DNA from: a virus
Virus record (IMG/VR): IMGVR_UViG_3300002140_000159
Coordinates: 1-64,000 of that record
DNA length: 64,000 nt
Strand: one strand, 5' to 3'
The notes under the pieces are model-generated. The model saw only the letters and a program-made list of their open reading frames with translations. It ran no database searches and was not told where the DNA came from. Position 1 is the stretch's first letter. Each line of letters starts with the position of its first letter. Shown one piece after another: positions 251 through 37,283 of the stretch. A program made the position numbers and the translations under genes.

Positions 251-335
251 AGTGAACTCCTATAGGATTAATGAACTGGGGTACGTACCCACTGGATGGC
301 TGTAGGCCATGTGTAGGGGGGGGGTATTTGAGTTT

Positions 336-3730: not shown

Positions 3731-3739
3731 GGATTAGGT

Positions 3740-4480: not shown

Positions 4481-4492
4481 AGGAAATACCCC

Positions 4493-6652: not shown

Positions 6653-6735
6653 TTTAAATTTGATATATAGTACAGGGCGTTTACTGTATTAATTCAGTAA
6701 ACTCCTCTATTAACTTCTATAGCACTGGTAGATCC

Positions 6736-8243: not shown

Positions 8244-8265
8244 TTAATTCATTAAGGAACTGACT

Positions 8266-9432: not shown

Positions 9433-9444
9433 GCAAGACTAAGA

Positions 9445-9477
9445 GGGGGCGGGCCACAAGCTCGCTCCCTTTTTTTA
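9445..9477 (+). terminator. rho-independent terminator after capsid gene
   Basis: GGGGGCG...CGCTCCC stem (extendable to about 10 bp) followed by T7. Confidence 0.7.
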
Positions 9478-9510
9478 AGTATCTTTTTATCTCCATATTG
9501 AGGAATCGCA

Positions 9511-10089: not shown

Positions 10090-10114
10090 ACTTCCACCCT
10101 GCCCGGATAGACCT

Positions 10115-10783
10115 ATGACCACTATTTCTGTAAACGACCTGACTCAAGCCACTGTTGATGGGACAGGCATCTTTGATGTCTTGATGCGTGCCAATGCGGC
10201 GCACTTAGAGTCAGAGTTTGCCAAAGGTCGCATCAAAGGATCAGAGTACTCAACGGTCTATTTGGGGATGCTCACTCAGGTAATGCAGACTTCGTTGCAG
10301 TTGCTGTTGTCCAAGGAAAAAACAGACTTGGAAGCCCAAGTGCTGAGTGAGCAGATCTTGCAGTTGCAAGCGCAGACTGCGCTCGTCACCCAGCAAAAAG
10401 CCAATGCCATTTTGGAAGGTGCCGTGCTGGTAGCCCAAGAGTGCAAGCTGCGTGCAGAGTTTGATGTGCTGCAGAGCACCAACCTCAAGACTGTTCAAGA
10501 GACTAGCTTGTTGGCTCAAAAGACAGCTACTGAGCGTGCGCAGGTTACGACTTTGGGTGTTGATGACAACTCAGTAGTCGGTCGACAAAAGCAGCTGTAC
10601 TTGGCTCAAACCAGTGGCTTCACCAGAGACGCTGAGCAAAAAGCAGCCAAGGTCATGGTGGATACCTGGAATGTGCGCCGTACAACTGACCCTGATGCAG
10701 CGCCAGCAGATGGGGTCAACAACTTGAGTGACGCCTCTGTTGGACGAGCTGTAACTAAGTTGCTTGCTGGTGTCGGAGCTTAA
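10115..10783 (+). CDS. hypothetical coiled-coil virion protein
   Basis: Gln/Leu-rich heptad-like sequence; followed by a terminator. Confidence 0.55.
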   Translation: MTTISVNDLTQATVDGTGIFDVLMRANAAHLESEFAKGRIKGSEYSTVYLGMLTQVMQTSLQLLLSKEKTDLEAQVLSEQILQLQAQTALVTQQKANAILEGAVLVAQECKLRAEFDVLQSTNLKTVQETSLLAQKTATERAQVTTLGVDDNSVVGRQKQLYLAQTSGFTRDAEQKAAKVMVDTWNVRRTTDPDAAPADGVNNLSDASVGRAVTKLLAGVGA

Positions 10784-10804
10784 AGCGCAGCTAGCCAGTA
10801 CCAA

Positions 10805-10831
10805 GGGGAGCTTATCGCTCCCCTTTTTTTC
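10805..10831 (+). terminator. rho-independent terminator
   Basis: GGGGAGC-TTATC-GCTCCCC perfect 7-bp stem followed by T8. Confidence 0.75.
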
Positions 10832-10863
10832 TTCAGCTGTGCATCAGTAAGACAGGAGCGGTC

Positions 10864-13125
10864 ATGGGATGGAATCCATTTAAAAGCAAAAGAGTCACGA
10901 CTATCGACGTGGCTACAGTTGCGCAGCGTTTGATTGAAGACGATAACCTTCCAGACGCTATCAAGACCGGCGTGATCAAGGCAATCTTGCGCGAAGAAAA
11001 TGTGACCGATACCGTGATTGAAGACTTGATCGGTAGTTTGGGTGTGCGCGCTGAGCGTGCTTACGCTTACGCCGAAAAGCACTACACGCACGGATTACCT
11101 TCTGGGGAAATCTACTCATCGACCCAAGGATGGGCACAAGTAGAAGCAGTGATTGAGGCGGCTGAGGGACAGCAAGTTGTGACTGAGTACTCACGCCATG
11201 GGCCCGCCAATGCGTTGCATGTAGGCTGGGTCAAGCTAATTCAGGATCACGGTTACAGCCACACAACTAATCAGCTTGCAGGTCTGACTGCTACTAAAGG
11301 CACGCCCGTCTATCTCAAAGACATGGTAGTTGTAGTACCTGCCCATTTACAAAGCATTTATGAGCCAGATGTGTTGGCTCAGTGGGGTATCAGCGCTAAA
11401 GCAGGCTTCACGCCTGAGCGAACGTCTAATGGATCTATTGGTTTACAGAAGGTGGTGGAGTCATCGCCTGTGTTCATCAATGCTGCGGCTACAGAGTTGT
11501 ATGTCGCAGTCACTTATGTGTGGGAGTCTGGTAGTCATACTTATGAAGGCTCATTGAGCATTTCATTGAATGACTACTCCGCTGATCAAAACTACTTTCA
11601 AGCCAAGTATGTAGCCGACGACGTAGTCAAATACTTCATCTATGCGCAAGGCACAGGCACTCACCCAACGCTTGATGATGTGTTTGCAGAAAAGACAGTG
11701 GTCAATGGAACGTACTTCCCATTTGTCTACTTTCGTAACAACAAGCAGTCGGTCATTCAAGACAAGACTACGCCTGCGTACAAGACCAGCAGAACGCTGA
11801 CAAAGTACTTTGGGATGGATTTTGATACGGTAGCCAAAGGCATCGACAGTAATCCTGACATCGACGATGTTCAGCAAGCCATGATGATCATGGCCGTGCC
11901 AGCTGTAACTACTGATCCGGTGGAGTGCCGCTATCTGTTTGATTACTTTGAGGCCATGAACTACGCCATGGATGACGGCACGTCTTCCTACACAGCACTC
12001 AACCGCAGCGACTTGTCCGGTTTACAGCCCGACGCTGTTCAAGGCAAGCGAAGAGCTTTCTTGATTCAGGATAAGCAATTCAAGATGGTGCTGAGCATTG
12101 GAGGCATCACTAAGCGTTTAGTAGTGGGTTCTATTGGGAAATTAGGTACACATAGCAGCGCATACAGCACACGCTCAGTAAGCGAGACAGCCTATGACGT
12201 AGACCTTGGCGAGGATGTCACCAGTACTCGCTTGTTTAAAGAGCATGTGTACAAAAAACAAATCACATCTGTGCTGTATGAAGAAGTGACAGTGCTAGAC
12301 CTGAGCATGACTTATTTCGTCTCTGGTCAATACACCACAACAGGTGATGAAACAGACGAGATCTTGTTAATTCCCATTGATATGTCAATTAGCAGCCAGT
12401 GGACAATTCAAGAAAGGGAGACGCTTTACGCACGGTCGATGCACTTTATTTTTAATACGCTGGTAATTACTGTAACCAAAGTTAAGTGGTATCAGACTGG
12501 CGCGTTCAAGACCTTAATGTTAATTGTCGCTATCGTCATGATTGTTGTGGATGGTGGTGCCACCATGGGGGTTTACTTAGGACTCACTGGCACAGCCGCT
12601 ATAGTTGCGTCAATATTAATAACGCTCTATGTCATGCCAGCTGTATTTAAACTAATAGTGAAATTAGTAGGCGCAGATGTAGCGACAATACTGGCTATTG
12701 CATTAGTAGTTTATGCTGCGCATCACTTTGCCACATCGCCAGGTATGGCAGGTGTGCCTACAGCCAACCAGTTAGTTAGTTTTGCTACTGGATTAAACGG
12801 TGCTGTGATACAGGATATGTTCTCTGACTTGCTGCTGGAACAGCAAGGGTTTTTTCAATTCATGGAAGAACAAACTAAAACATTGGACGAAGCTAATAAA
12901 CTGTTAGAGTCAACTAGTTTTCTAAGTCCGTTCGTAATATTTGGGGAAAGCCCACAAGACTTTTATAATAGAACTGTTCACTCCGGCAATGTCGGAGTAT
13001 TAAGTATTAGCGCAATTTCCTCCTACGTGGATATCGCTCTCACTCTTCCGAAGTTAGACGAATCAATTGAAACAATAGGAGAAAGTAATAATGGGATATC
13101 CAACGGATTCAACGAATGGGCTTAA
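10864..13125 (+). CDS. virion protein with C-terminal multi-TM region (candidate ejection/channel protein)
   Basis: 753 aa. Three to four hydrophobic helices lie near residues 545-640 (FKTLMLIVAIVMIVV..., AAIVASILITLYVMPAVF..., ATILAIALVVYAA...). Confidence 0.55.
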   Translation: MGWNPFKSKRVTTIDVATVAQRLIEDDNLPDAIKTGVIKAILREENVTDTVIEDLIGSLGVRAERAYAYAEKHYTHGLPSGEIYSSTQGWAQVEAVIEAAEGQQVVTEYSRHGPANALHVGWVKLIQDHGYSHTTNQLAGLTATKGTPVYLKDMVVVVPAHLQSIYEPDVLAQWGISAKAGFTPERTSNGSIGLQKVVESSPVFINAAATELYVAVTYVWESGSHTYEGSLSISLNDYSADQNYFQAKYVADDVVKYFIYAQGTGTHPTLDDVFAEKTVVNGTYFPFVYFRNNKQSVIQDKTTPAYKTSRTLTKYFGMDFDTVAKGIDSNPDIDDVQQAMMIMAVPAVTTDPVECRYLFDYFEAMNYAMDDGTSSYTALNRSDLSGLQPDAVQGKRRAFLIQDKQFKMVLSIGGITKRLVVGSIGKLGTHSSAYSTRSVSETAYDVDLGEDVTSTRLFKEHVYKKQITSVLYEEVTVLDLSMTYFVSGQYTTTGDETDEILLIPIDMSISSQWTIQERETLYARSMHFIFNTLVITVTKVKWYQTGAFKTLMLIVAIVMIVVDGGATMGVYLGLTGTAAIVASILITLYVMPAVFKLIVKLVGADVATILAIALVVYAAHHFATSPGMAGVPTANQLVSFATGLNGAVIQDMFSDLLLEQQGFFQFMEEQTKTLDEANKLLESTSFLSPFVIFGESPQDFYNRTVHSGNVGVLSISAISSYVDIALTLPKLDESIETIGESNNGISNGFNEWA

Positions 13126-13660
13126 ATACAACTCAACTAGTGGGTTTGGTATAAAGCAACTTAATCCTGCTACTAACCTTCAAGCAATGCAAGGCTACAT
13201 GACGCCGCCTTTGGCTGCTAATGGCGCTAACGGTGCTTTTGGTCCACAAGATTACTCTGTGTATGGAGGAACTCAAGTGCCTCAGATGGGTGGCTTTAAC
13301 GTAAGTAACCTAGCAGCTGGTGCAGGTGGATACAACATGACCAACCCAATTGCTCCTGCTGGGGGAAGTGGGGCGGGTGGTGGTTTTTTTGACAACATGA
13401 TTGGCACTAGAGAAAATCCTGGCTGGGGTGGTCTAGCAGTGGGCGCAGCAACTGGTGCAGCAAATCTGTTTATGGGCTTAAAGCAATACGGCTTGGCCAA
13501 AGACATGTTCGCTGAGAACAAAAGCCAGTACGCACAGAACTTTGACGCACAGCGTGGCTTGACCAACTCTCGCTTAGAAGATCGCCAGACACGCCGCAAC
13601 ATTGAGCGTCCTGACTCCATGGCAGCAGCGGACTACATGTCCAAGTACGGAGTCAAATAA
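13091..13660 (+). CDS. Gly-rich hypothetical virion protein
   Basis: AGGAGA RBS 8 nt upstream of the ATG. The start overlaps the end of the previous gene by 35 nt. Confidence 0.55.
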   Translation: MGYPTDSTNGLKYNSTSGFGIKQLNPATNLQAMQGYMTPPLAANGANGAFGPQDYSVYGGTQVPQMGGFNVSNLAAGAGGYNMTNPIAPAGGSGAGGGFFDNMIGTRENPGWGGLAVGAATGAANLFMGLKQYGLAKDMFAENKSQYAQNFDAQRGLTNSRLEDRQTRRNIERPDSMAAADYMSKYGVK

Positions 13661-15171
13661 TGGCAACACCTATTACTTGGCAAAACGTAAACGCGCCATC
13701 TAATGATGCTGCCATGCGGGGCATGGAGTCTGCAGGACAAAATCTGACTGGGGGCTTAGATAAGTTCGCATCTATTTTGGCAAACAGAGAACAGGTCAAT
13801 CAAGGCGTGGCTGACCGTGGCAGACAAGCAAGCCAGGAAGAGTACCTGAACTTGGTTCAAAGCTACAAGACACCAGAGGAGTTGCAAGCAGCTCGTATGT
13901 CAGGTGTGTTGGATCAACGCTTGGCGTCACTAGACCCACGTAATCAAGCTGCAGTGCGTGGTGCCCAAGAGGCGCGTATTACCAGTTTGCAGACGCAAGC
14001 CACCGCAGGCAATACGTTTGCTACAGGTCAAAAGACGTTTGCTGATGCACCCATGATTGAGCAGCACAACCAATTGGTAGCCAACGGCGACACAGTAGGT
14101 GCAGCAGCGCTTCGCGCAGCTAATACTGGCGTTAATTGGGGCAACAGTGCTCAAGATGCTTGGGACGCTGGCCGCACCCGCAATAATCAGAACACTGCAG
14201 ATACGTTGGCTGCTGAAATTGACCCGGTTGCGTTAGAAAACGCTAAAGCAAATGCGCTATTGGCTCCTGGAGCACGCGCACAAGCAGTCCTTGAGCAAGA
14301 ACTAAAGGCCATTAACCTGGCAAATCAACAGCGAACCGCTGATCAAGAAGTAGAGGACCGCAAGATTGCAGAAAGTACTGCAAGATTTGCAACTATTAGT
14401 CAGCAGCGAACAGCTGCTGTTCGGACTGGGTATGGTGTCTTGGCTAAGGCCCGTGGATTTAATCTTGCCCCAGACGGCGGACCAGACCGCTCTCGTATGA
14501 CGGATTCTGAGATTGCAATTCTGACTGCTGCCGGTAAAGCTGCCGGTATGCCAGCATTTGACACCATGTTCAGTGGTAATACCCAGTCTGCTGCTGCGCT
14601 TAAGAAATCTCTAAAGGATCAAGGTTTCTCCGACAGAGCTATCACCAATGCAGGCGATTTGATAAATGGTGCAGCCGACACGTCAAGTGTTGGTGCACTG
14701 GTGGGTAACGATAGGGTACGAGCCGCCACAGCACAGGCCACTATGGACGTGATGCAGGAAGAAACTGACTCTAAAAACTGGTATGCCCCTGGAAGCCCCA
14801 ATGCTCGTAGTGACTACGAGACGCTGGCCAAAGACATTGAAGCAATGTTCAAAGGCACGAACATGATTGAGGATCTGCCAGACATCCAGAACCTACTTAA
14901 CAAGGCTGCCACCACAGGAATTGAAGTCAGTACAGGAGTGTTTTTGACACCATCCAAAAACGACATGATGGCTGCAGTACGTTCAGAGATGAACACCGAC
15001 AACTTTTTTGAAGACTCTCGTGCTGGCGATATTGAGGCTTTCTTAAAAAATAGTATGGACACCGAACGCGTCACAAAGTTGCAACAGCAAGCTGCACAAA
15101 GCGCAATACAAAACCGTGACCGTGCCATAAGAGCAGAGCTTCAAAAAGCGCTTTTCCCACCGAAGAAGTAA
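13660..15171 (+). CDS. hypothetical virion (internal/ejection?) protein
   Basis: 503 aa, Ala/Gln-rich, with a TAATG overlap with the previous gene. It lies immediately upstream of the vRNAP gene. Confidence 0.55.
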   Translation: MATPITWQNVNAPSNDAAMRGMESAGQNLTGGLDKFASILANREQVNQGVADRGRQASQEEYLNLVQSYKTPEELQAARMSGVLDQRLASLDPRNQAAVRGAQEARITSLQTQATAGNTFATGQKTFADAPMIEQHNQLVANGDTVGAAALRAANTGVNWGNSAQDAWDAGRTRNNQNTADTLAAEIDPVALENAKANALLAPGARAQAVLEQELKAINLANQQRTADQEVEDRKIAESTARFATISQQRTAAVRTGYGVLAKARGFNLAPDGGPDRSRMTDSEIAILTAAGKAAGMPAFDTMFSGNTQSAAALKKSLKDQGFSDRAITNAGDLINGAADTSSVGALVGNDRVRAATAQATMDVMQEETDSKNWYAPGSPNARSDYETLAKDIEAMFKGTNMIEDLPDIQNLLNKAATTGIEVSTGVFLTPSKNDMMAAVRSEMNTDNFFEDSRAGDIEAFLKNSMDTERVTKLQQQAAQSAIQNRDRAIRAELQKALFPPKK

Positions 15172-15176
15172 AACAA

Positions 15177-15198
15177 AAGTCCCTCAACAGAGGGACTT
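15177..15198 (+). promoter_or_regulatory. stem-loop between virion genes and vRNAP gene
   Basis: AAGTCCCTC-AACA-GAGGGACTT is a perfect 9-bp stem, but only a weak T tract follows. Confidence 0.4.
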
Positions 15199-15217
15199 CA
15201 TTTGAAAGCCTAATTAA

Positions 15218-18200
15218 ATGCAAGACTCTTTCGATGACACTATGTCACGCATTTCGCCTACGCCAATTACCCCTGAAGTTCGGCTCCCTACTGTGGGTGA
15301 GGTGGAGTCCAAATACAGATCTCTCCAGCAAGCCAGTAGAGACAAGATTAGCAGGTTAGAAGTCCGCAGACTTCAACAAGTAGCTCGTGAGAAAGCAGTT
15401 GCTGATTCCGTGGTGGGGCAGTTAGGACTTGACCCCAATGACACTTTTGGCGCTCTGGCTAATCGCGGTGTCGCTACCTACACCGGAGTTGCAACTGGTG
15501 CTGGTGCTTTGGCATCAGGTGCAGCCAATGAATTTGCTAGGTTTAACCGTGGCTTGGCAGACCCTCTTGTGCAGCAAGCCTACCAACGCCAGCAATGGGG
15601 GATAGCCAACGCGGATGACCTGAAGCTACTCAACGCCCCTACCGCAGATCGCACGTACTTGAGTGACTCAGATGCGGCTGAGCGCTTCGCCAATAAGATT
15701 GATGCTCGTCGTGCAGAGATTGCCACAATGGTGGCTCCTAACAAAGAGGGCATCCAACCAACTGGCTTACCCCAGATGGCGGTGGATGGTGGACTGAGTC
15801 TGCTCAAAGGCGCTATTGCTGTACCTGAAGCAGCAGTTGGTTTGGCCAGCATGGTTTCTGGTGGTGCAGCAGGCAAGTACTTAGAAGATGCTGGCTTTCG
15901 TCCTGGTGAAGCCAAAGACTTTATTGAGTCTCTGAAATCCGCAGAGATGCAAGCTGCAAGCCAAAGCGTCAATGGTGCAGAAGGCTTTTGGAACACTGTG
16001 GACCAAATGGCTGAAAACCCAAGCACAGTGCCGCACTTGTTGTTGGAATCACTATTCCCCATGCTGGCAGGTGGTGTGGCTGCGCGGGGTCTTCAAGCCT
16101 TGGGCGCAGGTGTCAAATTAGCGACAGCAGCAGGCGAAGGCGCTCTCATGGCTGGCTCTGCTGCAGAGCAAATTCGTGGGCAGACTGTAGACAAGCGCCT
16201 TTCCCTCAAGCAATCATTAGCTGCCGCCACCACAGGTGTGATGGGAGGTACTGTAGCTCGCTTGAGTGGTGGTGTATCAGGTCGTCTTGGTTTGGGTGAC
16301 ATTGATGAAGCCATCACCAAAGGTACGCTGGGCACATCTCAACGTGGGGTGCTCACCCGTACTGGTGGTGCCGCTGTGTTTGAAGGTGGTGAAGAAGCTT
16401 TGCAGTCCACGGGTGAAACTGTGCTGCAAAACTTTGCACTGGACAAAGCCTTAACCGAAGGTGTTGGTAATGCAGCTGCATTGGGTATGGTCACAGGTGC
16501 TGCTATGGGCGCACCTATGGGACTGGCCAAAGGAGTGGGCGAAGCACAGCAACGCTACCAGGACGCTACAAAGCTCCAGGACGAGGCGATTGCATCAGGT
16601 GATGTAACTGCATTGGCAGACCCAGCCGCACGCACCTACGCTCCTGAGAAGGCTATTGCCGCACTGACTGGCAATGCTCAGCTGGCTACAACTACTGAAG
16701 AAACCAAGCAAGCCCATCTGGCCAAGGCCGATGAGATTGTGGGTGTGCTGGATGAAAAGCGAGCAGCGCTAGCAGCAGACTTATCGAACAAAACACTCAA
16801 AGGTGTCACCGCCAAGATTGCTGAAATGCAAGCTCTCTTGGCCAATACAGACCCGGCTAAAGTCGACAAGGTCGCAGGCTACACAAGATACTTGGATAAC
16901 TTGCAAAAGGAGTTGCCTTTACTGCAAGAAGACAAGACTGACGGCAAGCGTACCAAGTCTTTGGAAAAAGAATTAGCTACGCTAGACACGCAGATAGAAG
17001 GTGTGAACACCGCCAAGACCCAGCTCAATCAGCTGGTAGAAGGCGGCACTGGTGTAGAGGCCATGCTGACATCATTGAGTACGCCGGTTGATCAAGCTGA
17101 CCCTGTAGCTGTAGAAGCTTCTGTGGCGACTGCAACTCGCGTAGTGAACTTGGCCATGTCTGCTCCTCAGCTGTTGGATCCTGTTCGTGCAGAGGAAGTA
17201 GCTGCAGACATGACCAATGCTTTGACAGCTCCACAGCGTTTGGTCTTGCGTGAGTTCTCAAAAGCACGGCTGGAGCAGAACCTACTGATTAGTGGCAGTG
17301 CTGTGTCACGCCAAATTTACGAAGGTGGCGGCGGTAATACAGGTATCAAAAATTACCAAGACCGCATGGCAGTAGCTGTGCGTACCGGCAATCAAAAACA
17401 AGCAGAAGAACAGCTTGATGGTCTGGGTAAATTTGAAGCGGACCACCGCAGCAAAGCGGAGGTGGCCGCTGCAGCAATGGCCAAAGGGCCAGGCATACAA
17501 ATCATTAAAGCCAATGGGCAATGGCAAATTGGCGATGGCTCGCTGTCACAAAGCAAGGCGCGTCCCAATGGTGCTTTAACAATTAATTCACCGAAATTGG
17601 TAAGCGACATTCAGCAAGAAGCTGCTGCACTGACTGCTTCGCTGAGCTATTTGACAAAGGCGTATGAGCTGAAGTTCAACGCACCTTCCGCTGATGCATC
17701 AACTTTGACTGGAGCTGAGAATGTCACGAACCAATCACAACAAGGACAGGGAGCGCAAGTTCAGTCCAAAACCCCTGCAACAAAAGATGCAGCGCCAACT
17801 GGAGGAACAGCGACTTCTTCCGAGGGAGTACCAGCAACCGTTGGAACCACTGGTGGTGTACAAGCCGCTGGAGTAACTGAGTCAGCTGTAGTAGAAGCTA
17901 AGTCAACTACAGTGAATGAAGAGACATCCGTCTCTTCTGTGAAGACTAAGAGTACTGGAGTAGATAAGAAGACTGAGATAACTCAGAAGACTCAGGAAGC
18001 TAAGAGTACTGAGATAACTGCAGACACTACAGTTGAAACACAGGCTAATTCAGAGAATAGCACAGTTGAGTCTGATACTGCCCAGACAATTGCCTCCGAT
18101 GGGAAACTTTCGGCACTTCAACAGACCTCCCCGGAGGGGACTCCCCACGATGAGAAAAAGCTAGGTGACTTTTTTACTCAGGAGTCTGGAAAAGACTCTG

Positions 18201-21200
18201 ATGGCTCAAAGCGTCCACTAGTAGAAGTCAAAAACTTCATGGCTGCAGTAGCTGCAGGTACAGTAAAAATAGGTCAGTACATCAAAGACCAGGACTTGGG
18301 CAAAGACTCAAAACTAGTAGCGTGGGCTAAGTTTGTTGAGAAAACTGCACAGTGGGCACCGATCATTGCTCGCAATCTGAAGGTTGGAGCCAACGCAAAA
18401 TTTAACTACGATGATCCAATACGTTATTTGATCCAAGCGATCAGCGTGAATGGGAAAAGCGGTATTGACGTTGAAGACAACGTGAAGACTGCCATGTCTG
18501 CTGCAGTGTTTGGGTACGTTGCTGATCTGGCCAGTCGAGCTGCTGCCAACAGTGATAAAGCAATCAACAGTACTCTGGGTCATCGCCCAGACTCGCCTAT
18601 CAGTGCAGATGCAAGAGCAGCGCTGACAGATGTTGGTGCGTACCAGTCCCAGGTAATTGACTCACTTGGCTCAGCTGTTATTGACGCACTGGGTTTTAAG
18701 ATTGACGTGAACGCACCTCAAGACATGCTGGCTAAATTGCGTGTGTCTCTTGGAGCCCACGCGTTTAAGCTGATGGAGGACCGAGGCTTATTGGTTCGTA
18801 CATCTTTCACCAATGGTGAAATCAACAATCTGCGTAACGAAGATCTGTTTGCAGACAATGAGGCTGAGAACTCAGGCGAAGAAACTACGCAAATTTCTGA
18901 CAAGGTAGTGGGACATCATTTTTACAAGCTCGCTCGTGACGAGGCAGGGCAGCCAAATGGCGAAGCCAAGGAAGTTGCAGATTCAATCAAAGGCTCTCAG
19001 AGCCTGATTCAAAACTTGTTTGGGATTGAGTCAGGTTTGTCGTTTCCAAGTCTCACGCCTATTGTTGGTGTGCAGAAACAATCAAACACTGGTATGGGAC
19101 TACCTGGCTTTGTTAAAAAGGTGTTCAAGCTCAATCAGACGCGACCATGGAAAGCCAACAAAGATCCGTTGAAGGTACTGAGTTTGTTCTCAGAAGAAGA
19201 AGGCATGGAGATGTCTGGCGTCGAGGCAGAGAGTGAGCACACTCACGTTCGCAACCGAAATAGCAAGCGCGCAAAAAACGATGGCCTGGCCCGTGAGTTT
19301 CGCAACTTCATGGGGTTTATGGGCGATCTGGCCATGGGCGAGAAAGGTATGGATCAAGAATTCTTCTTGAACCAAGATATGTGGAAGCAGCAACGCTCAG
19401 GCTACAAGAACAACACTGTGAACCCCAACACCAGCAAGATTGTTCGCTGGTTGATTGCTTCTGACAGTTGGAGCACAGTCATTGATCTGAGCAACGAAAC
19501 TCAGCTTCAGTCTTTCATGCTGCGTGCATCGGAAGGTTTTGGCATCAAGCCAGAAAAAGATGCCAGCCAGAGATCCGTTGATGCGCTTGATTCCATGATG
19601 CAAGACCCAGCGATGAAAGCTGCAGTCAAAGCACTTCAGGTAGTCCTGTTTACTGATAACGCTGTGCTGAGTGTGGAGCAACAAGCTGCAATTAAAGCAG
19701 CAGTTAAAACAGGCAACCAGAAACTCCATACGTTGGCTTCGCTGATCGCTTATGCCAAGTATCAGCAAGCTATTGACACAAAGGCGGATACATTTACGAC
19801 CAACCTGATGGGCGAGGTTGATGGTGTGTCCAATGGTTCTATCCTCAATGCAATCATGTATGGGGCTGCTGCTACTGCAGAGCAGTTGAACTTGCTGCTG
19901 GAGAAAGGCGGAATCTACGCTTTTGCACTTGGCACCCAAGAGCCTCGTTTCAAAGGGTACAACTTGTGGCGCGGTACACCAGGTCATCAGGACATTTACG
20001 AATCCAATGCCCAAGATTTACATTCCTATGTGAACTCAATGCCTGTTGAGAGTCGCGCAGTAACAGGTGCGATCTGGGCAACAGCTGGCTCTCCAATCAA
20101 TGCGGCATTAGAAGCGACCAAAGACGGACGAGATTTGCTCAAGGGGCCAATCAATCCGCTGAACTATGGTGGTGGCTTTACCAGCATCATTGGCAAGATG
20201 GCTTACGACTACGTGGATACCATGTACGAAAAGCTGGAAGGCTTCTCGCGCAAAGGCTCCGAACAATCTACTGTTGATGTGTTTGTGGGTAACGTCAACG
20301 TGCTGCTTCGTTCTGAGGGAGCTGCCCAGCTACCAGTTGGCAGGCCCATTTCGTACTACCTCAGCCGCTCGTTGTCAAAGTCACAGGAAGCCGCATTACG
20401 CAATGCGTATGCTGCAACGATTGGTGCAGCTACCAAAGAAGTAATTGGCACTAACTTTAAGCCATTCTTAAAGCGAAGCAAGCTGGTGACGCAGACGGTT
20501 GCCTTGTCCTACGGTTTGTACGAGGCTGTGTACACCGCTTCGCGTAACGCCATGATTGAGGAACTAGGCATCCCAACGACAAAGGCTGGGCCTATCCATG
20601 ATCTAAGCAAAGCACAAGAAGCAGAACTTGCAGAGCGTTTAAAAGACATCTTGCCTGTCATGCACACGGCAATGTCCAAAGACGAAGGCAATACCAGTAA
20701 TGGTATCTTGCTAGCCAAAAAAGGCCGCAAGCAAAACAACTCCTCAGCCTACAAAGTGCAAGTTTCTTTTGGCTCGAAGCTAAAAAATAATGCAAGCCAG
20801 CTAACTTCGGTTGGGCGTTCAGTGGTTCAAGAAGACCCAGGTGTGATTGCTATTTCTGGCACAACGCACGCACTAGACAGTGCTATTTCTCTTGATGCAC
20901 AAAACACAAACCATGTCGTAAACAACCATGATGCAGTAGGTGCAGGTATCAATACGTTGGCGGAGTCAGCGGATTCTTTGAACAAGAGCACTTGGTCAAG
21001 AACGCTCAACTACTCCCCATTGAATGAAGCTCACGACGCACTTATGCGCGTGGTTCGTGGCATTACGGAGATGGACCAGCGCGGCGAATTGACACCGGAA
21101 ATGCAAGCATCAATCAAAGAGATGCTGCAAAAGCTTGCCAAGAAGAACCGTGTCGACAAAGTTGAAACTCTTTTGGACACAACAGTGTTCAAAATTTTCA

Positions 21201-24200
21201 ATGAGGCTTTGGAAGCCAACAAAATTAAATTCGGTGCTATGTCTCAATGGGCGGTGGTTGACCAGTACGCCATGGACGGTGGCAGCCACACAGTGACTGA
21301 GGCAGATCGCAAAGAAGCCAGCGATAACCTTAATGCTCTAAGCCCTGTTCGTGCTGCAGCTGACTTACAAGCTTTGAATGATTTTGCTCTTACGATGTTT
21401 GGGGCAGGCGCTGTAAGCACTGTGCCAGATGCGCAGCCAGCAGTTGTTCCTAAAGAAGCAACACTCACGTCGGTGTTTGGCCCACTGGGCACACCTAAGA
21501 TTGCGCCTGATGCTGACTTGGTAGAGTTCTTTGAAGCCAACCCGGAAGCCAGCTTTAAGCGAGTGCTGCAGGGGTTGTTGCGCAAGGTGAGCACGGATGG
21601 CAGCATACCAAATCCGAAGTTCAACACTATGCTGATCAAGTCATTGGTCAAGTTGGTGGATCCAGAACTCCAGGTCAAGTACATCACCAAAGACTCGCCA
21701 GGAGACTTGCCTATCAATGGGCCAGTGATGGGTGCAAGGGGTTGGTTTGCCATGAATGGCACCAAGCAAGAGATCTATGTACTGAGTCCTGAGTTTGTGG
21801 ACTCTGGCTTGACCACAGAGCTGTTGATCCATGAGCTGGTTCATGCAGCTTTAAGCAACATTGTGCAGAGCACAGACAAAGCAGTGCAGCCTTTTATTGC
21901 AGAACTTAATGAGTTGCTTAAAGCTGCACAGACCACAGTTAATGGTGATGCCAAGCTCAAAGCCAAATTTGGAGATGCAGTTACTAGCTTAGATGAGTTA
22001 CTGGCTTGGGGCATGACCAACCAGGCATTCCAAACGGAAGTGCTTGCCAAGATCAATATGCAGTCCACCACACTGGGCAAGATGGCCAATCTTCTGCAAA
22101 TCTTTGTGGCTAACTTGGCTAACATGCTGGGCTTTAAAGATGTAGCTTCTGCTAATGGCTTGGGTGTGTTGATTGCTAATGTCTCTGCTTTGTTTGAACA
22201 AGTAGCTAAGACAGTGCCAGTAGAGCGCAAGCAAGACCCGGTTAACTTGGTCATGGCAACACCTGCTGCAGATCCATCGCTGCAAGCCAAGCTCAACACT
22301 TACAGCACGTTGGATTTACACGACGCACTGAAAGACGGCAAGCTAAGTGTGAACTTTGCCAATCAAGTGCGTGGCTTGCTTAGCAACATTGTTGAAAAGC
22401 TACATGGTCCATTCGGCTCCTTTAGTGCCAGCCTAATGGAAGAGCAAGCACTGTCGGCAGAAGATGTGTACCTCAAGGCGATCAACACGGGAGAAGTCCC
22501 ATTTGCTTCGCAAATACTAGGCTCTGGCTTTGTCGTTCCTGATCAAAGCATGTTCGCCATTGAGCAAATTGAAGCCACTGTGCGAGCCACACTGGAGAGC
22601 AAAGAAGCTTACAGCACGTCAGCCTACAGAGTTTTGTACGCCTTGTACACGGAGATCAAAAACAAGATCAAGGTAGAAGACTTCCATACCGGATCCCCAT
22701 GGAGCCAAGCCACGACTGCGGAGCAGGCGGCAGCGCAGGCGCTTCATGACTTTATCTTTAAGCTTGAAAGTAACAAAGGCCAGCGATCAGATTACCTGTC
22801 TCGCTTTGCTGCTATGGGTCTGGCTCATGAGGGCTTTAACAAGTTGCTGCAAGTGGCGACAGACCGCAGTCGCACAGTCGCCTCTACCAAGAGTTTTGCT
22901 GACCGATTGCAAGCAATCTTTGAGGGCATCTTGGCTTTCTGGAACACCAAGGTTACACACACGTACAAAGGCCAGCAAGCAGATCAAAAGCTGACTATGT
23001 TAGTTGGCCAGCTGGTAGACATTGAAGCCAAGCGTCGCTATAAGTTTGCACATCCACGGACAAGCCCAGTGCTTGATGCCATTGAAGATAAATCAAAAGC
23101 AGCCGCTGATGCACTGCGCAGCAAGATATCTAAGATGGCAGGTGCCCCTGCAGTGTCAGAAAACAAGTATGCCGTTGTACGAGCAGCGGGTGCTTTGGTT
23201 CAGACCGTTGCAGATAACCGGGTTGACTACTTCATGGACAACTTGCGCACCATGCGCAACTCTGCGTTCAAAGGCAAGCTGGGTGTAATTGCATCGACAC
23301 TTGGTGAACTGCAAGGACCAGCTAAAGCTTTGCAAGCCTTGCTGCGTGCGTCCAAGTGGATGGAAGGCCACCGCAAAGACGTGATTACCAACACCGCTAC
23401 GTTTGCGCGTGCTGGTTTTGCTAACCAAGGCAAAGGCATGAGTACGGCTGCCAAGGCGGCTGTCTCTCAAGTGTTCTTGCGTTCTGGCTTGCATCACTTG
23501 GTTGGCAAGTTCAGCATGGCTGAGATTGCTGGGTTAGTCAGCAACACCAGTGAGTTAAACAAAGCCGTGGCCACGTATGAAGCCAAGCTTAGTAGCTTTG
23601 GTAATGCCACCAAATACTTCATTGAGCAAGCCAATGCCCTTGGTATTCAAATTGCCACGGGGGGTGTACGCGGTGAGTTTGAAATGATGAACGCACACAA
23701 CATTGCTAACTTGTACGGCACGGCTTACCAAGGCAAGCTGACTGCAGCGCGTACAGCTGAAGCCAAAGAAGTCATTGAAGTTCTTGTGGCTTTGTATGCG
23801 CTAGGCTACACCGCCAGTGCTGCTCGCCTGGAAGCCTCTACATTGATTGCGATAGAGAACCAGCGTACTGATGGCAACGGTGTGGAGTCTGTACTCAAGC
23901 TGCACAAGCAACTGGAGAAAGAATCTCTGGAGCGTGTCTTTAAAGGTCTGCCTGAGCTAATGGTGCACGGCTACTTGCCTGAGATTTACGACCCCAACAT
24001 TGAAGTAAAAGTGGCTAACGTTGCAGATGGTAAAGACTTGATCAACCTTGGCTACACCAAAGGTGAGCAAGTGGTGTTGGACCGGGCTGATCCAGATCGT
24101 TCTATGCGCCACATGTACGTCCGCGATGGGGGCGGTATGGGTAGACGTGTGTCAGGCATCACGTCCACAAAAAGCTTGAACAGCAAGGGTACAGAAAATC

Positions 24201-25810
24201 ACAGTGGGTACACAAATACCAACACGTTCACTGGTGCACAAAACGCTGCAGCCAATGCGGACTTGATGGCTTCTCGCAAGCAAGCCATTGCTGACATGTT
24301 TACGCCAGGTCCACGCCGTGATCTGTCAAAAGTGAAGGCCAACCACATGGCACCTGTGCTTAATGAGCGGGGTGAGGTTGTGAAGTGGCGCTACATGATG
24401 GCAAACACCACCAAGGACAGCGTACTCAACCGGGACAACAGCTTTGACAAATTGCTGGGTGTTTTGGCTGGCGCTACTTATGACAAGGAAACTTCACGCG
24501 AGCAGAACAAAACAGCCTTCACTGCGCTCAAGGCACAGTATGACGCTGACTATGTCAAGAACCCAGAAGCGTATGTGCTGGTGGGTCAGGGTGCTCTCAC
24601 CAAAGAAATGAAAGAGATTTGGGATCTATTGCCTGCTGACAGCAAAGCTGATGCAAGAGCTATCTGGGGATACGACGGCATGATGGTCAAGAACGACGCT
24701 TTGGACATTATGTTTGGCTACCGCAAAGCGTCACTGGCTAATGCTTTTGCAAAAGATCCAGCGCTGCGCAGTGCACTTGAAAACATATTTGTTGATGTAA
24801 TGGAATGGTCACTGAGCCAACACGGTCGCGCGTTCCAAGGCATGGACCGAGACAAAGCACTGGCTTACGCAAAGATTGCCGCTATCAAGATCACGCGAGG
24901 AGAAAAAGTTTGGCAGGAACTGGTGGGTGAAGTCAAAGACATCTTGGTGGTCAAGACTGGCTTTGTGATGATGGGCAACATCTACTCCAACTTGTCATTG
25001 CTTTGGTTGAATGGTGTACCGATTAAGGATATTCTTAACCATCACTTGGTAGCTTTGAAAGGCGCTACAGCTTACAAACAGGACAGTGCTGAGCTGGCCC
25101 AACTTACGCTACTGCGCGACACTGGTTACATGCAAGGCAAAGATCTTGAAGTGAACCGGCGCATTGCTCGCTTGGAAGACAGCTTAGCAAACAATCCAGT
25201 CAAGGAACTTATTGATCTTGGCTTGATGCCAACCATCGTAGAAGACTTGGCCGCAGACGAAGATATTTACTCTTACAAGAGTGCTTTTGTCAGAATAGTG
25301 AGCAAGTTTACTGACAAGCTCAACCCAACCGTAGTCAAGGCAGCCAGAGTGGCGTACATGGCGCATGACACGCAGCTGTACCAAGGTCTGTCGCGTGTGA
25401 CGCAGTTGTCTGACTTTGTGGCTCGGTACACGCTTTACCAGCACAACATCAACAAGCGCAATCCCATGAGTAAGGAAGATGCTATTCAAGATGCCAGTGA
25501 TGCGTTCATCAACTACGACATTCCGATGCACCAGTCATTGCAGTACATGGATGACATGGGGCTGCTGCCGTTTACCAAGTACTTCCTGCGTATTCAGAAA
25601 GTCCTTGCTAAATTGTTTATGGACAATCCAGCACGGGTGTTGATGGCCATGTCTGTGGGACAGCTTATGGACTTGGGGCCCATCGTTCTGGAGAGTTCTA
25701 TGTTTGGTCGGATAGGCAACAATCCACTAGACGTTGGGCCTTTTAAGCTGCTTACGGTGCTAGATGACATTGCCACTATCAATGCTGCTTTGTCTATCGT
25801 GAAACAGTAA
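15218..25810 (+). CDS. N4-like virion-encapsidated single-subunit RNA polymerase (giant virion protein)
   Basis: 3,530 aa. Motif A is GEVDGVSNGS (D1535). Motif B is RDLLKGPINPLNYGG, matching R-x3-K-x7-YG (R1638, K1642, Y1650). Motif C is NNHDAVG (D1905). Upstream, FFLNQDMWKQQRSGY...NP resembles T7 FPYNMDWRGRVY...NP. Confidence 0.85.
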   Translation: MQDSFDDTMSRISPTPITPEVRLPTVGEVESKYRSLQQASRDKISRLEVRRLQQVAREKAVADSVVGQLGLDPNDTFGALANRGVATYTGVATGAGALASGAANEFARFNRGLADPLVQQAYQRQQWGIANADDLKLLNAPTADRTYLSDSDAAERFANKIDARRAEIATMVAPNKEGIQPTGLPQMAVDGGLSLLKGAIAVPEAAVGLASMVSGGAAGKYLEDAGFRPGEAKDFIESLKSAEMQAASQSVNGAEGFWNTVDQMAENPSTVPHLLLESLFPMLAGGVAARGLQALGAGVKLATAAGEGALMAGSAAEQIRGQTVDKRLSLKQSLAAATTGVMGGTVARLSGGVSGRLGLGDIDEAITKGTLGTSQRGVLTRTGGAAVFEGGEEALQSTGETVLQNFALDKALTEGVGNAAALGMVTGAAMGAPMGLAKGVGEAQQRYQDATKLQDEAIASGDVTALADPAARTYAPEKAIAALTGNAQLATTTEETKQAHLAKADEIVGVLDEKRAALAADLSNKTLKGVTAKIAEMQALLANTDPAKVDKVAGYTRYLDNLQKELPLLQEDKTDGKRTKSLEKELATLDTQIEGVNTAKTQLNQLVEGGTGVEAMLTSLSTPVDQADPVAVEASVATATRVVNLAMSAPQLLDPVRAEEVAADMTNALTAPQRLVLREFSKARLEQNLLISGSAVSRQIYEGGGGNTGIKNYQDRMAVAVRTGNQKQAEEQLDGLGKFEADHRSKAEVAAAAMAKGPGIQIIKANGQWQIGDGSLSQSKARPNGALTINSPKLVSDIQQEAAALTASLSYLTKAYELKFNAPSADASTLTGAENVTNQSQQGQGAQVQSKTPATKDAAPTGGTATSSEGVPATVGTTGGVQAAGVTESAVVEAKSTTVNEETSVSSVKTKSTGVDKKTEITQKTQEAKSTEITADTTVETQANSENSTVESDTAQTIASDGKLSALQQTSPEGTPHDEKKLGDFFTQESGKDSDGSKRPLVEVKNFMAAVAAGTVKIGQYIKDQDLGKDSKLVAWAKFVEKTAQWAPIIARNLKVGANAKFNYDDPIRYLIQAISVNGKSGIDVEDNVKTAMSAAVFGYVADLASRAAANSDKAINSTLGHRPDSPISADARAALTDVGAYQSQVIDSLGSAVIDALGFKIDVNAPQDMLAKLRVSLGAHAFKLMEDRGLLVRTSFTNGEINNLRNEDLFADNEAENSGEETTQISDKVVGHHFYKLARDEAGQPNGEAKEVADSIKGSQSLIQNLFGIESGLSFPSLTPIVGVQKQSNTGMGLPGFVKKVFKLNQTRPWKANKDPLKVLSLFSEEEGMEMSGVEAESEHTHVRNRNSKRAKNDGLAREFRNFMGFMGDLAMGEKGMDQEFFLNQDMWKQQRSGYKNNTVNPNTSKIVRWLIASDSWSTVIDLSNETQLQSFMLRASEGFGIKPEKDASQRSVDALDSMMQDPAMKAAVKALQVVLFTDNAVLSVEQQAAIKAAVKTGNQKLHTLASLIAYAKYQQAIDTKADTFTTNLMGEVDGVSNGSILNAIMYGAAATAEQLNLLLEKGGIYAFALGTQEPRFKGYNLWRGTPGHQDIYESNAQDLHSYVNSMPVESRAVTGAIWATAGSPINAALEATKDGRDLLKGPINPLNYGGGFTSIIGKMAYDYVDTMYEKLEGFSRKGSEQSTVDVFVGNVNVLLRSEGAAQLPVGRPISYYLSRSLSKSQEAALRNAYAATIGAATKEVIGTNFKPFLKRSKLVTQTVALSYGLYEAVYTASRNAMIEELGIPTTKAGPIHDLSKAQEAELAERLKDILPVMHTAMSKDEGNTSNGILLAKKGRKQNNSSAYKVQVSFGSKLKNNASQLTSVGRSVVQEDPGVIAISGTTHALDSAISLDAQNTNHVVNNHDAVGAGINTLAESADSLNKSTWSRTLNYSPLNEAHDALMRVVRGITEMDQRGELTPEMQASIKEMLQKLAKKNRVDKVETLLDTTVFKIFNEALEANKIKFGAMSQWAVVDQYAMDGGSHTVTEADRKEASDNLNALSPVRAAADLQALNDFALTMFGAGAVSTVPDAQPAVVPKEATLTSVFGPLGTPKIAPDADLVEFFEANPEASFKRVLQGLLRKVSTDGSIPNPKFNTMLIKSLVKLVDPELQVKYITKDSPGDLPINGPVMGARGWFAMNGTKQEIYVLSPEFVDSGLTTELLIHELVHAALSNIVQSTDKAVQPFIAELNELLKAAQTTVNGDAKLKAKFGDAVTSLDELLAWGMTNQAFQTEVLAKINMQSTTLGKMANLLQIFVANLANMLGFKDVASANGLGVLIANVSALFEQVAKTVPVERKQDPVNLVMATPAADPSLQAKLNTYSTLDLHDALKDGKLSVNFANQVRGLLSNIVEKLHGPFGSFSASLMEEQALSAEDVYLKAINTGEVPFASQILGSGFVVPDQSMFAIEQIEATVRATLESKEAYSTSAYRVLYALYTEIKNKIKVEDFHTGSPWSQATTAEQAAAQALHDFIFKLESNKGQRSDYLSRFAAMGLAHEGFNKLLQVATDRSRTVASTKSFADRLQAIFEGILAFWNTKVTHTYKGQQADQKLTMLVGQLVDIEAKRRYKFAHPRTSPVLDAIEDKSKAAADALRSKISKMAGAPAVSENKYAVVRAAGALVQTVADNRVDYFMDNLRTMRNSAFKGKLGVIASTLGELQGPAKALQALLRASKWMEGHRKDVITNTATFARAGFANQGKGMSTAAKAAVSQVFLRSGLHHLVGKFSMAEIAGLVSNTSELNKAVATYEAKLSSFGNATKYFIEQANALGIQIATGGVRGEFEMMNAHNIANLYGTAYQGKLTAARTAEAKEVIEVLVALYALGYTASAARLEASTLIAIENQRTDGNGVESVLKLHKQLEKESLERVFKGLPELMVHGYLPEIYDPNIEVKVANVADGKDLINLGYTKGEQVVLDRADPDRSMRHMYVRDGGGMGRRVSGITSTKSLNSKGTENHSGYTNTNTFTGAQNAAANADLMASRKQAIADMFTPGPRRDLSKVKANHMAPVLNERGEVVKWRYMMANTTKDSVLNRDNSFDKLLGVLAGATYDKETSREQNKTAFTALKAQYDADYVKNPEAYVLVGQGALTKEMKEIWDLLPADSKADARAIWGYDGMMVKNDALDIMFGYRKASLANAFAKDPALRSALENIFVDVMEWSLSQHGRAFQGMDRDKALAYAKIAAIKITRGEKVWQELVGEVKDILVVKTGFVMMGNIYSNLSLLWLNGVPIKDILNHHLVALKGATAYKQDSAELAQLTLLRDTGYMQGKDLEVNRRIARLEDSLANNPVKELIDLGLMPTIVEDLAADEDIYSYKSAFVRIVSKFTDKLNPTVVKAARVAYMAHDTQLYQGLSRVTQLSDFVARYTLYQHNINKRNPMSKEDAIQDASDAFINYDIPMHQSLQYMDDMGLLPFTKYFLRIQKVLAKLFMDNPARVLMAMSVGQLMDLGPIVLESSMFGRIGNNPLDVGPFKLLTVLDDIATINAALSIVKQ

Positions 25811-28716: not shown

Positions 28717-29451
28717 TTATGCAAACAAACTAGTGGCTGGTTTTTTCATAGCCGTGCCGCCACCAAAAGCTCCTTTGGGAGCACCTGCTGTGCCGGTAGC
28801 TTTAGCCTTCATGCGCACAATGCCTGAGAATTTGCTTTCCCAAGTGGCGTAGAACGCTGGCTCATTGGCTGCGGCACGGATCTCAGCAGTAGTCATCTTG
28901 TCGGCTGCGCGAAAGAACTTGTCGATCTCGTTCTCATCACGAGTCTCACCAGTCGGCTCATAAGCACCTGTGGTTTCGTTCTTGGCATTTTTGTCAACAG
29001 TCTGCTTGATCAAGCCAATGATGATTTCTTTCCCCATTAGATCGACTGGCACGTCAACTTTAGTTGGGACTTCAGCTTTGGCTTCGTAGCTGTAGACGTT
29101 GACAACTTTTGTCTCAGTGTCTAGCTCAGAGATTTCCTTGCCTGTTGCTAGCAATGCCAATGCATTTGCTGCGATGAAGCCTGGCAAGTAGTTCTTCTGA
29201 CCGTCTTTCTCGTAGTAGTTCTTGGCGCCTTTGGCGGTGCCTGAAGTCATCCACAAGGTCTGACGGATGTCACGGCCCATGCTGGTTTTGGCGTGCAAGA
29301 CTAAGCCTGTGGCGCCTCCTGCTGATTTGGTGACGTAAGCCAAAGTGACAGTGGCTGGGTACAGACCAGACTCCAGTACGCCGCCTCCGCCTACGGAGTC
29401 TTTTTCATTGGCAATGGTGGCGTCGGAAGTGAGGTTTTTAAGTGCTGACAT
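28717..29451 (-). CDS. putative ssDNA-binding protein
   Basis: Sits between the nuclease/Sak4-like ATPase and the resolvase genes. 244 aa with a Gly-rich N-terminus and acidic tail region. No motif-level proof. Confidence 0.4.
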   Translation of the reverse strand: MSALKNLTSDATIANEKDSVGGGGVLESGLYPATVTLAYVTKSAGGATGLVLHAKTSMGRDIRQTLWMTSGTAKGAKNYYEKDGQKNYLPGFIAANALALLATGKEISELDTETKVVNVYSYEAKAEVPTKVDVPVDLMGKEIIIGLIKQTVDKNAKNETTGAYEPTGETRDENEIDKFFRAADKMTTAEIRAAANEPAFYATWESKFSGIVRMKAKATGTAGAPKGAFGGGTAMKKPATSLFA

Positions 29452-37218: not shown

Positions 37219-37283
37219 ACAGGGGCCAGGAAGCCCCTGGATAATCTAAACTAAGTTAATGTGGAATGCGAGTTTACTGTATA

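Follow-up and report, generated by a model that had tools for sequence, protein, structure and literature searches.

A 3,530-residue N4-type virion RNA polymerase gene in the genome of an uncultured, sequence-divergent Schitoviridae phage

Introduction

A stretch of 64,000 nucleotides (nt) of viral DNA, positions 1 to 64,000 of IMG/VR record IMGVR_UViG_3300002140_000159 (hereafter the window), carries a single giant open reading frame (ORF) at 15218-25810 whose predicted product has 3,530 amino acids (aa). A first-pass annotation, made from the letters of the sequence, had read this ORF as the virion RNA polymerase (vRNAP) of an N4-type phage, a counterpart of N4 gp50, and had suggested a divergent lineage with a gene order unlike that of N4. 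Since a giant vRNAP is the defining gene of the Schitoviridae, the assignment would make the window an N4-like phage genome and explain its transcription strategy. The question raised by the locus is thus whether the ORF encodes such an enzyme with a working active site, and whether its surroundings are those of a polymerase that enters the host with the phage DNA. We conclude, with a probability of roughly 0.93 for the joint claim, that the ORF is the vRNAP of an uncultured Schitoviridae phage and that it takes part in an N4-style infection mechanism.

Results

The ORF was found on the + strand exactly as it had been called, without internal stops and with uniform composition along its length.

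15218..25810, + strand: vRNAP gene, N4 gp50 homologue; ATG start, 3,530 aa (ORF listing, PHROG 2206, phmmer)

The product matched the family PHROG 2206, "virion RNA polymerase", collinearly from end to end of the profile (E=0, 1,757 bits; residues 242-3520 on profile positions 196-3398 of 3406), and was likewise collinear with the vRNAP of phage YH30 over residues 251-3527. A phmmer search against PDB sequences returned the N4 vRNAP chains 11fw, 11gp and 9pnr (E 2.7e-38 to 6e-34), in two blocks, one around motifs A and B (1401-1681) and one in the C-terminal domain (2764-3482). The length agrees as well, N4 gp50 having 3,500 aa, in line with the figure given in the first-pass annotation. When the polymerase domain was used as a tblastn query, 306 phage records were matched, essentially all of them annotated as vRNAP of N4-like phages, with the best matches in Pseudomonas Litunavirus phages at about 30% identity; over the polymerase-domain and C-terminal queries, the number of vRNAP-annotated records was 306-474. 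The C-terminal 1,431 residues were 34-35% identical over 1,428 aa to the vRNAPs of LUZ7 and Litunavirus phages. With aa 1000-2110 as query, HMMER was run exhaustively against 1.84 billion cluster representatives and gave 771 homologues, nearly all of 3,300-4,000 aa, of which 479 had E<1e-30 and the best was 62% identical. The vRNAP is at most 35% identical to that of any cultured phage and 62% identical to the nearest metagenomic cluster. Neither megablast nor blastn with the vRNAP gene found a nucleotide-level match among 50,697 phage records, so that its relatives are visible to protein-level searches only. The nearest IMG/VR contig found, IMGVR_UViG_3300032607_000379 (L027), is 77% identical over the C-terminal 300 aa and has an intact vRNAP ORF of 3,623 aa, followed by the same genes as in the window.

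The polymerase itself occupies the central third of the protein.

18215..21418, + strand: single-subunit T7-like RNA polymerase (RNAP) domain, about aa 1000-2067, equivalent to N4 mini-vRNAP (AlphaFold2, Foldseek, HMMER)

An AlphaFold2 model of aa 1000-2110, built on a 26-sequence alignment, reached a mean pLDDT (per-residue confidence) of 87.6 and a pTM (predicted template modelling score) of 0.84. When this model was compared with the PDB by Foldseek, the top matches were 3c2p, 3c3l, 3c46, 2po4 and 9pnq, the last being the RNAP domain of a 2025 cryo-EM structure (E 1.5e-31 to 2e-29; template modelling score, TM, 0.70-0.73), and the superposition on N4 mini-vRNAP extended over about 1,100 columns at 14-15% identity. 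Next came yeast mitochondrial RNAP and T7 RNAP (E 2e-11 to 1e-10); with the T7 chains 1cez and 8dh0 and the yeast and human mitochondrial RNAPs taken together, E values ran from 2e-11 to 1e-8, at a probability of 1.00 and TM 0.35-0.55. The palm and fingers of a T7-like enzyme are thus present in the model, and the domain has the central location expected from N4. By sequence, T7 RNAP was not reached in a profile search of the PDB, which found N4 alone with a profile that itself included N4 and is in that respect circular. As judged from the predicted structure, the vRNAP is T7-like in fold and not a sequence-level member of PF00940; N4 vRNAP, too, is a structural relative of T7-like RNAPs (PMC4496689).

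All four motif segments named in the first-pass annotation were recovered by translation and string search at the residues given for them, including FFLNQDMWKQQRSGY at residues 1382-1396 with NP at 1402-1403.

19382..19447, + strand: T/DxxGR equivalent WKQQR (R1393) with NPNTSKIVR (N1402, K1407, R1410) (alignment)
19811..19840, + strand: motif A GEVDGVSNGS, residues 1532-1541, with E1533 and catalytic D1535 (string search, alignment)
20129..20173, + strand: motif B RDLLKGPINPLNYGG, residues 1638-1652, with R1638, K1642, Y1650 and G1651 (string search, alignment)
20921..20941, + strand: motif C NNHDAVG, residues 1902-1908, with catalytic D1905 (string search, alignment)

Conservation was counted in a MAFFT alignment with 150 database relatives, N4 and YH30, the relatives spanning 28-62% identity; all counts are out of 153. 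The motif A residues D1535, G1536 and G1540 were present in every sequence, as were R1638 and K1642 of motif B, D1905 of motif C, and R1410. R1393 and K1407 were each kept in 152, G1651 in 151, H1904 in 150 and E1533 in 147. The aspartates, lysine and arginine of motifs A to C are hence invariant among the homologues, and the aromatic residue of motif B is either Tyr (25 sequences) or Phe (128). Fold and conservation were the two checks that the first-pass annotation had set for its reading, and the reading passed both. The R-x3-K-x7-YG spacing of motif B (R1638, K1642, Y1650) is exact, as had been claimed.

Each motif has a clear counterpart in N4. WKQQR and NPNTSKIVR align with N4 TRVGR (R1421) and NPQSAKLVR, and K1407 and R1410 correspond to K437 and R440 of N4 mini-vRNAP (PMC4496689). 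Motif A aligns with N4 EADGVTNG, where D1556 is D559 of mini-vRNAP, and contains the ExDGxxxG pattern by which N4-like viruses have been screened (PMC10654107). The counterpart of motif B is RGIAKNPLTITIYGS, and motif C aligns with KIFDGMN (D1948). The N4 gp50 equivalents (R1421, D1556, R1663, K1667, Y1675 and D1948) sit 21-43 residues from the window positions, so the similarity in absolute position stated in the first-pass annotation was correct, and a smaller alignment with six cultured-phage vRNAPs gave the same correspondence to N4. On this alignment evidence the active site is intact, with D1535 and D1905 as the predicted metal ligands, R1638, K1642 and Y1650 on the predicted O-helix, and R1393, K1407 and R1410 in place.

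Residue 1650 (window 20165-20167) deserves mention in its own right: it is Tyr here and in N4, and Phe in most relatives, including the Litunavirus vRNAPs. The position is equivalent to T7 Y639 and N4 Y678, which control discrimination between ribonucleoside and deoxyribonucleoside triphosphates (rNTPs and dNTPs). The basis of rNTP selectivity in the Phe-bearing enzymes is not obvious.

Several results count against the assignment, as does the loop of the candidate promoters described below. Pfam searches with the whole protein and with its thirds gave nothing significant. The N4-derived vRNAP models PF21894, PF21769, PF21867 and PF21624 reached 14.2 bits at best, where the cut-off is 27 and the same four models score N4 at 79-328 bits, and PF00940 matched neither the window vRNAP nor N4 mini-vRNAP. 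Residues 1 to about 240 had no detectable similarity to N4 or PHROG 2206. The T/DxxGR element is degenerate, with the Arg of WKQQR alone kept, as in most relatives. Finally, the exact 3,530-aa product had no record in the gene-position index, and independent backing for an intact giant ORF comes from relatives only, such as that of L027. The Pfam miss is a measure of divergence, the N4-built models appearing to be narrow, and is no evidence against homology; annotation by Pfam alone would leave the 3,530-aa vRNAP blank.

Two other explanations draw on these points. One is that the protein serves chiefly in the ejectosome or as a structural component and that its polymerase module survives as a decayed relic; the subthreshold Pfam scores for the N4 vRNAP domains, the reduction of T/DxxGR to one Arg and the 14-15% identity to N4 in the structural superposition could all be read in this way. 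However, none of the catalytic residues tested is missing, and all are invariant across the 153 relatives, which argues for purifying selection on catalysis, and the whole 1,100-residue fold is kept at TM 0.70-0.73; we therefore regard decay as very unlikely. The other is that separate genes were joined into the 10.6-kb ORF by an error of assembly or gene calling, a suspicion to which the missing index record and the split vRNAP calls in a few published genomes (PMC10654107) lend some substance. It is hard to reconcile with collinearity to PHROG 2206 from end to end and to YH30 over almost the entire length, with the intact ORF and shared downstream genes of L027, or with a frame that lacks internal stops and is uniform in composition, and we consider it extremely improbable. 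The assignment as an active vRNAP is therefore retained. The gene has every testable feature of its family except a match to the narrow Pfam models, and it is a genuine but ordinary hallmark gene.

The regions that flank the polymerase follow the domain layout of N4 gp50.

15218..17677, + strand: N-terminal domain, aa 1-820, Ala/Gly-rich, presumed membrane-interacting ejection domain (composition, Kyte-Doolittle)
17678..18142, + strand: low-complexity Thr/Ser/Ala-rich linker, about aa 821-975 (T 19%, A 13%, S 12%)
21515..25807, + strand: C-terminal domain, about aa 2100-3530, homologous to subdomains C1 and C2 of the N4 C-terminal domain (phmmer, tblastn)
21830..21844, + strand: HExxH motif H2205-E2206-L-V-H2209 in subdomain C1 (N4 match, alignment)

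The N-terminal domain has hydrophobic stretches at about aa 192-219, 271-293 and 419-438 on a Kyte-Doolittle plot, matches PHROG 30335 at 155-467, and is collinear with the YH30 vRNAP from aa 251. For the N4 domain, membrane helices are predicted at 224-278 and insertion into nanodiscs has been described (PMC13434306); by analogy the window domain is presumed to interact with the membrane during ejection. The linker corresponds to residues 907-1006 of N4 (PMC13434306). In the C-terminal domain, similarity to N4 was detected by phmmer over residues 2764-3482 (independent E value 7.6e-28), and the extreme C-terminus (roughly the final 200 residues) is the most conserved part of the vRNAP, with the sharing of 5-mers peaking at aa 3331-3480 (145 of the 150 relatives). 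The sequence LIHELVHA around the HExxH motif is identical in N4 (HELVH at 2228-2232), and conservation of its H, E and H reaches 90% or more in a 51-sequence alignment; the motif has been described in N4 C1 (PMC13434306).

A further trait of the whole protein is the absence of cysteine (0 of 3530 residues), where about 35 would be expected at the frequency of 0.98% seen in the other window proteins. The vRNAPs of N4, YH30 and 139 of the 150 relatives are cysteine-free as well, and so are both ejection proteins encoded just upstream. Ceyssens et al. noted the lack of cysteine in the vRNAPs of the Pseudomonas phages and tied this to passage through the tail and periplasm (PMC3715699).

These upstream genes place the vRNAP in an ejection operon.

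13091..13660, + strand: gp52-like ejection protein, 189 aa, 0 Cys (PHROG 2646, E 2e-18; shared with N4 gp52 and YH30_34)
13660..15171, + strand: gp51-position ejection protein, 503 aa, 0 Cys (PHROG 6467, E 7e-14; shared with YH30_35)

The order of gp53-like gene, gp52-like gene, gp51-position gene and vRNAP is common to N4, YH30 and three of the relatives (L017, L019 and L023), and in N4 and DEV the gp52 and gp51 counterparts form an ejection operon with the vRNAP (PMC13434306). The equivalence of the second protein to N4 gp51 is positional only, N4 gp51 belonging to PHROG 6126. As judged by PHROG and tblastn, the + strand begins with a gp69-like gene, a 263-aa ORF, the large terminase, a gp67-like gene, the portal, and gp58- and gp57-like genes, and continues through the major capsid protein and gp55-, gp54-, gp53- and gp52-like genes to the gp51-position gene and the vRNAP. 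This is, gene for gene, the N4 order gp69-68-67-...-59-58-57-56-55-54-53-52-51-50, except for the 263-aa ORF, which has no N4 or YH30 match and a weak similarity to a PHROG "virion structural protein". The N4 gp66-gp60 tail/lysis block is absent from the late operon of the window.

Beyond the vRNAP lie convergent genes on the - strand, which encode a RuvC-like resolvase, a single-stranded DNA-binding protein (SSB), Sak4, a primase and an exonuclease.

28717-29451, - strand: SSB, N4-type (PHROG 743)

Within these replication genes, a + strand block at 38101-55007 holds the tail fibre genes, the holin and the lysozyme; a radical-SAM gene lies between them, and the block closes with a DNA-repair exonuclease. 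Its first tail-fibre gene starts at 38101, 12.3 kb past the vRNAP stop, in agreement with the 12 kb noted earlier. A tail/lysis module within the replication genes is the known layout of the Pseudomonas phages LIT1, PEV2 and LUZ7 (PMC3715699), and YH30 has the same arrangement. The view that the gene order departs from that of N4 thus holds in one part: the tail genes are relocated, in a layout that is already published, and the position of the vRNAP at the close of the head/internal-protein operon is N4's own. Likewise, the lineage is divergent by sequence, given the low vRNAP identity to cultured phages, and not by virtue of a new gene order.

The gp51-position gene and the vRNAP ATG are 46 nt apart. 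The gap is filled by a hairpin with a 10-bp stem, AAGTCCCTC-AACA-GAGGGACTT, at 15176-15199, and only a weak Shine-Dalgarno-like GAAAG precedes the ATG. Together these could keep vRNAP expression below that of the more abundant ejection proteins. A scan for sigma-70 promoters and terminators around the vRNAP gene gave none above shuffled background, and a tRNA scan found zero.

Candidate promoters for the vRNAP were found in the early region. A JGI contig (L013) matches window 1-11264 at 100% identity (11,264 nt) and reaches 5 kb further left; it carries small early ORFs on the - strand together with both subunits of the N4-type RNAPII, of 304 aa (PHROG 2166, "N4-like RNA polymerase") and 412 aa (PHROG 2051, PF00940). 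Five copies of a hairpin tGGCC-TAC-GGCCa were found at L013 3498-5336 on the - strand, so placed that each of the first five transcription units has one ahead of it: four stand before the first four small early ORFs, and another before the YAcAr gene, the first of the RNAPII cluster. The motif GGCCTAC(G/A)GCC occurs 4 times in L013, all in the early region, with 0.12 expected; in the remaining copy, Pe2, a G:C pair of the stem is replaced by A:T, a compensatory change. One copy lies inside the window.

296..310, - strand: Pe1, putative vRNAP early promoter, ATGGC-CTACA-GCCAT on the early coding strand

Pe1 directly follows a poly-C run and stands ahead of the first early ORF, and N4 P1 also follows a poly-C run at the left genome end. 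Folded as single-stranded DNA, four copies form a stem of 5-6 bp with a 3-nt loop, and Pe1 a 5-bp stem with a 5-nt loop. A TGG is conserved 12-14 nt downstream of the loop centre, comparable with the early promoters of LUZ7, in which the G start is 13-14 bp from the hairpin centre (PMC9163698). A relative from a Larsenimonas assembly, L017, has three template-strand hairpins AGCGC-GGA-GCGCT at the same position and with the same TGG spacing. No sigma-70-like promoters were found upstream of the early ORFs, which are followed by strong hairpin/T-run terminators. By analogy with these systems, the early-region hairpins are most likely vRNAP promoters. The template strand of the hairpin reads ATGGCC-GTA-GGCCAT, with a loop GTA whose centre is a pyrimidine, where N4, with GGA or GAA, needs a central purine. 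As the loop is unlike that of N4, the promoter assignment is an architectural and positional one, and the GTA loop implies a promoter-loop recognition that has diverged.

Two other hairpin matches were rejected as promoters. The hairpin AGTGC-GGA-GCACT at 336-350 would resemble an N4 early promoter, but the GGA reading falls on the strand opposite to the one that leftward early genes would require. A second GGCCTACGGCC-like match at 51745-51755 has one mismatch and lies inside the radical-SAM ORF, and two matches per 64 kb are within chance. At 318-350, the first of these, a perfect hairpin in its - strand reading, adjoins nine consecutive G, which are poly-C on the - strand. A poly-C run is also found at the left genome end of N4 (N4 33-42), and a physical genome end or terminal repeat may lie near this site. 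A strong terminator, GGAGC-TTCG-GCTCC with a T-run, was seen at 490-515.

The nearest cultured relatives are not the same for every gene. The portal is 61% identical to those of Klebsiella phage Pylas and Salmonella phage FSL SP-058, and relatives of the capsid protein at 69-76% identity were found on contigs binned or assembled with a Burkholderiaceae metagenome-assembled genome, Xenophilus, Larsenimonas and Marinobacterium, identity to the Burkholderiales-associated contigs being 74-76%; one of these contigs, L019, is a 914-kb Xenophilus contig. Xenophilus sp. Marseille-Q4582 has an N4-like element (NZ_CAKAKO010000006.1, around 82-104 kb). The phage is an uncultured, sequence-divergent schitovirus, and its host is probably a beta- or gammaproteobacterium.

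The window also encodes an integrase.

55319-56386, - strand: tyrosine recombinase/integrase, 355 aa (PHROG_1, E 2e-31; PF00589 at 24.2 bits, just below the cut-off)

Among phages, the integrase has its best relatives in temperate ones (Ralstonia phage YO103_6 at 47%, lambdoid and P2-like integrases at about 30%), and no schitovirus was among the 15 best matches listed. That the window represents an integrase-bearing, possibly temperate schitovirus lineage in which, at the same time, vRNAP promoter specificity has shifted to a GTA loop is a tentative and rather doubtful proposal. If true, the lineage would offer a natural pair, with the central-purine loops of N4 and L017, for mapping hairpin-loop recognition by vRNAPs, and it would sharpen the question of how a prophage that depends on a virion-delivered polymerase restarts transcription on induction.

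The integrase bears on a third explanation, in which the ORF encodes an active gp50 homologue that is not, or not only, delivered by the virion, while the early genes are transcribed by a different polymerase, such as host RNAP when a prophage is induced, and the hairpins are RNAPII or regulatory sites. The capsid relatives within bacterial assemblies, including the 914-kb Xenophilus contig, would fit such a lifestyle; the middle (RNAPII) promoters of LUZ7 are also GC-rich hairpins (PMC9163698), and the hairpin loop of the window is without the central purine that N4 vRNAP needs. On the other hand, the hairpins precede the first genes at the genome end and the RNAPII cluster itself and must therefore act before RNAPII exists, and the early ORFs have no sigma-70-like promoters upstream. 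In addition, the conserved C-terminal domain, the lack of cysteine and the position after the gp52-like and gp51-position genes are traits of a packaged and ejected protein. We give this explanation only a slim chance and keep to a virion-delivered vRNAP.

Other accessory genes were noted outside these systems. Genes for the large (606 aa) and small (370 aa) subunits of ribonucleotide reductase (RNR) overlap by 83 nt and are followed by thymidylate synthase (245 aa) at 34368-38021 on the - strand. RNR and thymidylate synthase are absent from N4 and YH30 at that position, and RNR is also found in L027. Between the first tail-fibre gene and the radical-SAM gene with the lysis cassette, twelve consecutive ORFs of 121-404 aa occupy 39453-50149 on the + strand. 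The ten of the twelve that were scanned had no Pfam and mostly no PHROG match; the N-terminus of 43730-44755 matches tail-fibre PHROGs, and the ORFs at 46508 and 47242 (53% identity), as well as those at 47940 and 48729, are paralogue pairs. This array may consist of receptor-binding or tail-accessory genes. The radical-SAM protein (459 aa, PF04055, PHROG 1802; 50780-52159, + strand) lies just upstream of the holin (52190-52588), which is followed by the lysozyme (52593-53018) and probable spanin genes.

Discussion

Homology, fold, an intact active site, the domain layout and the ejection-operon context, along with RNAPII, SSB and the early hairpins, are the observations on which the identification of this vRNAP is built. 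For packaging and ejection the signs are indirect, namely the lack of cysteine, the conserved C-terminal domain and the place in the ejection operon. From what is known of N4, DEV and LUZ7, the gene would be expressed late, as the last of the head/ejection operon, and a few copies of the protein would be packaged into the capsid through the C-terminal domain. On infection, the cysteine-free vRNAP would be threaded unfolded through the tail after the gp52-like and gp51-like proteins and would refold at the inner membrane. It would transcribe the early genes from extruded hairpins, most likely the five tGGCC-TAC-GGCCa copies, with initiation predicted at a conserved GG that lies 13-14 nt past the centre of the loop. 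Among the early products would be the N4-type heterodimeric RNAPII, which would take over middle transcription.

What the window adds is one divergent sequence in a family with hundreds of metagenomic representatives, and it confirms that constraint on the protein falls on the catalytic core, the absence of cysteine, HExxH and the far C-terminus. As by-products, it provides five candidate early promoters with a non-N4 loop, the Tyr/Phe split in motif B, and an integrase in the lineage. Current understanding is unchanged by the vRNAP itself, and both the relocated tail genes and integrase-bearing N4-like genomes have already been published (PMC3715699, PMC10654107).

Among known systems, N4 gp50 (2PO4, 3C2P; full-length 9PNQ, 9PNR) is the reference. 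The two proteins are alike in length (3,500 versus 3,530 aa), in the order of N-terminal domain, linker, RNAP and C-terminal domain, in the lack of cysteine, in the Arg of TxxGR, motifs A, B and C and the HExxH of subdomain C1, and in being encoded by the last late-operon gene after gp52 and gp51. They differ in sequence, with about 25-27% identity in the stretches that can be aligned and an N-terminal domain that BLAST does not align, and the window phage further differs from N4 in the PHROG of the gp51-position protein, in the GTA promoter loop and in a late operon without the gp60-66 block.

The closest cultured relatives of the polymerase are found in the Pseudomonas Migulavirinae (LIT1, PEV2, YH30, DEV gp71, LUZ7), with 30% identity in the RNAP domain and 34-35% in the C-terminal domain. 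These phages share the reverse-orientation tail/lysis module, which is placed among the replication genes at a distance of about 10-12 kb from the vRNAP, the PHROG of the gp51-position protein, and hairpin promoters that start at a G 13-14 nt away from the centre of the loop. In contrast, their motif-B aromatic residue is Phe where the window and N4 have Tyr. In addition, genes for RNR, thymidylate synthase, a radical-SAM protein and an integrase are present in the window, rIIA/rIIB are missing from the stretch seen, and the portal and capsid proteins are nearer to other lineages.

With T7 and mitochondrial RNAPs, the window polymerase has in common the right-hand fold of palm, fingers and thumb, the R-x3-K-x7-YG motif B and the Asp of motifs A and C. 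It differs from them in lying within a four-times-larger protein and in having no sequence-level match, and, unlike T7 RNAP, it would be expected to act on single-stranded hairpin promoters and not on duplex DNA. Zheng et al. in 2023 (PMC10654107) screened for uncultured N4-like viruses by a vRNAP length of 2,842-3,820 aa and the ExDGxxxG motif; the window protein falls within this range and bears the motif, and their set includes N4-like genomes and proviruses with integrases.

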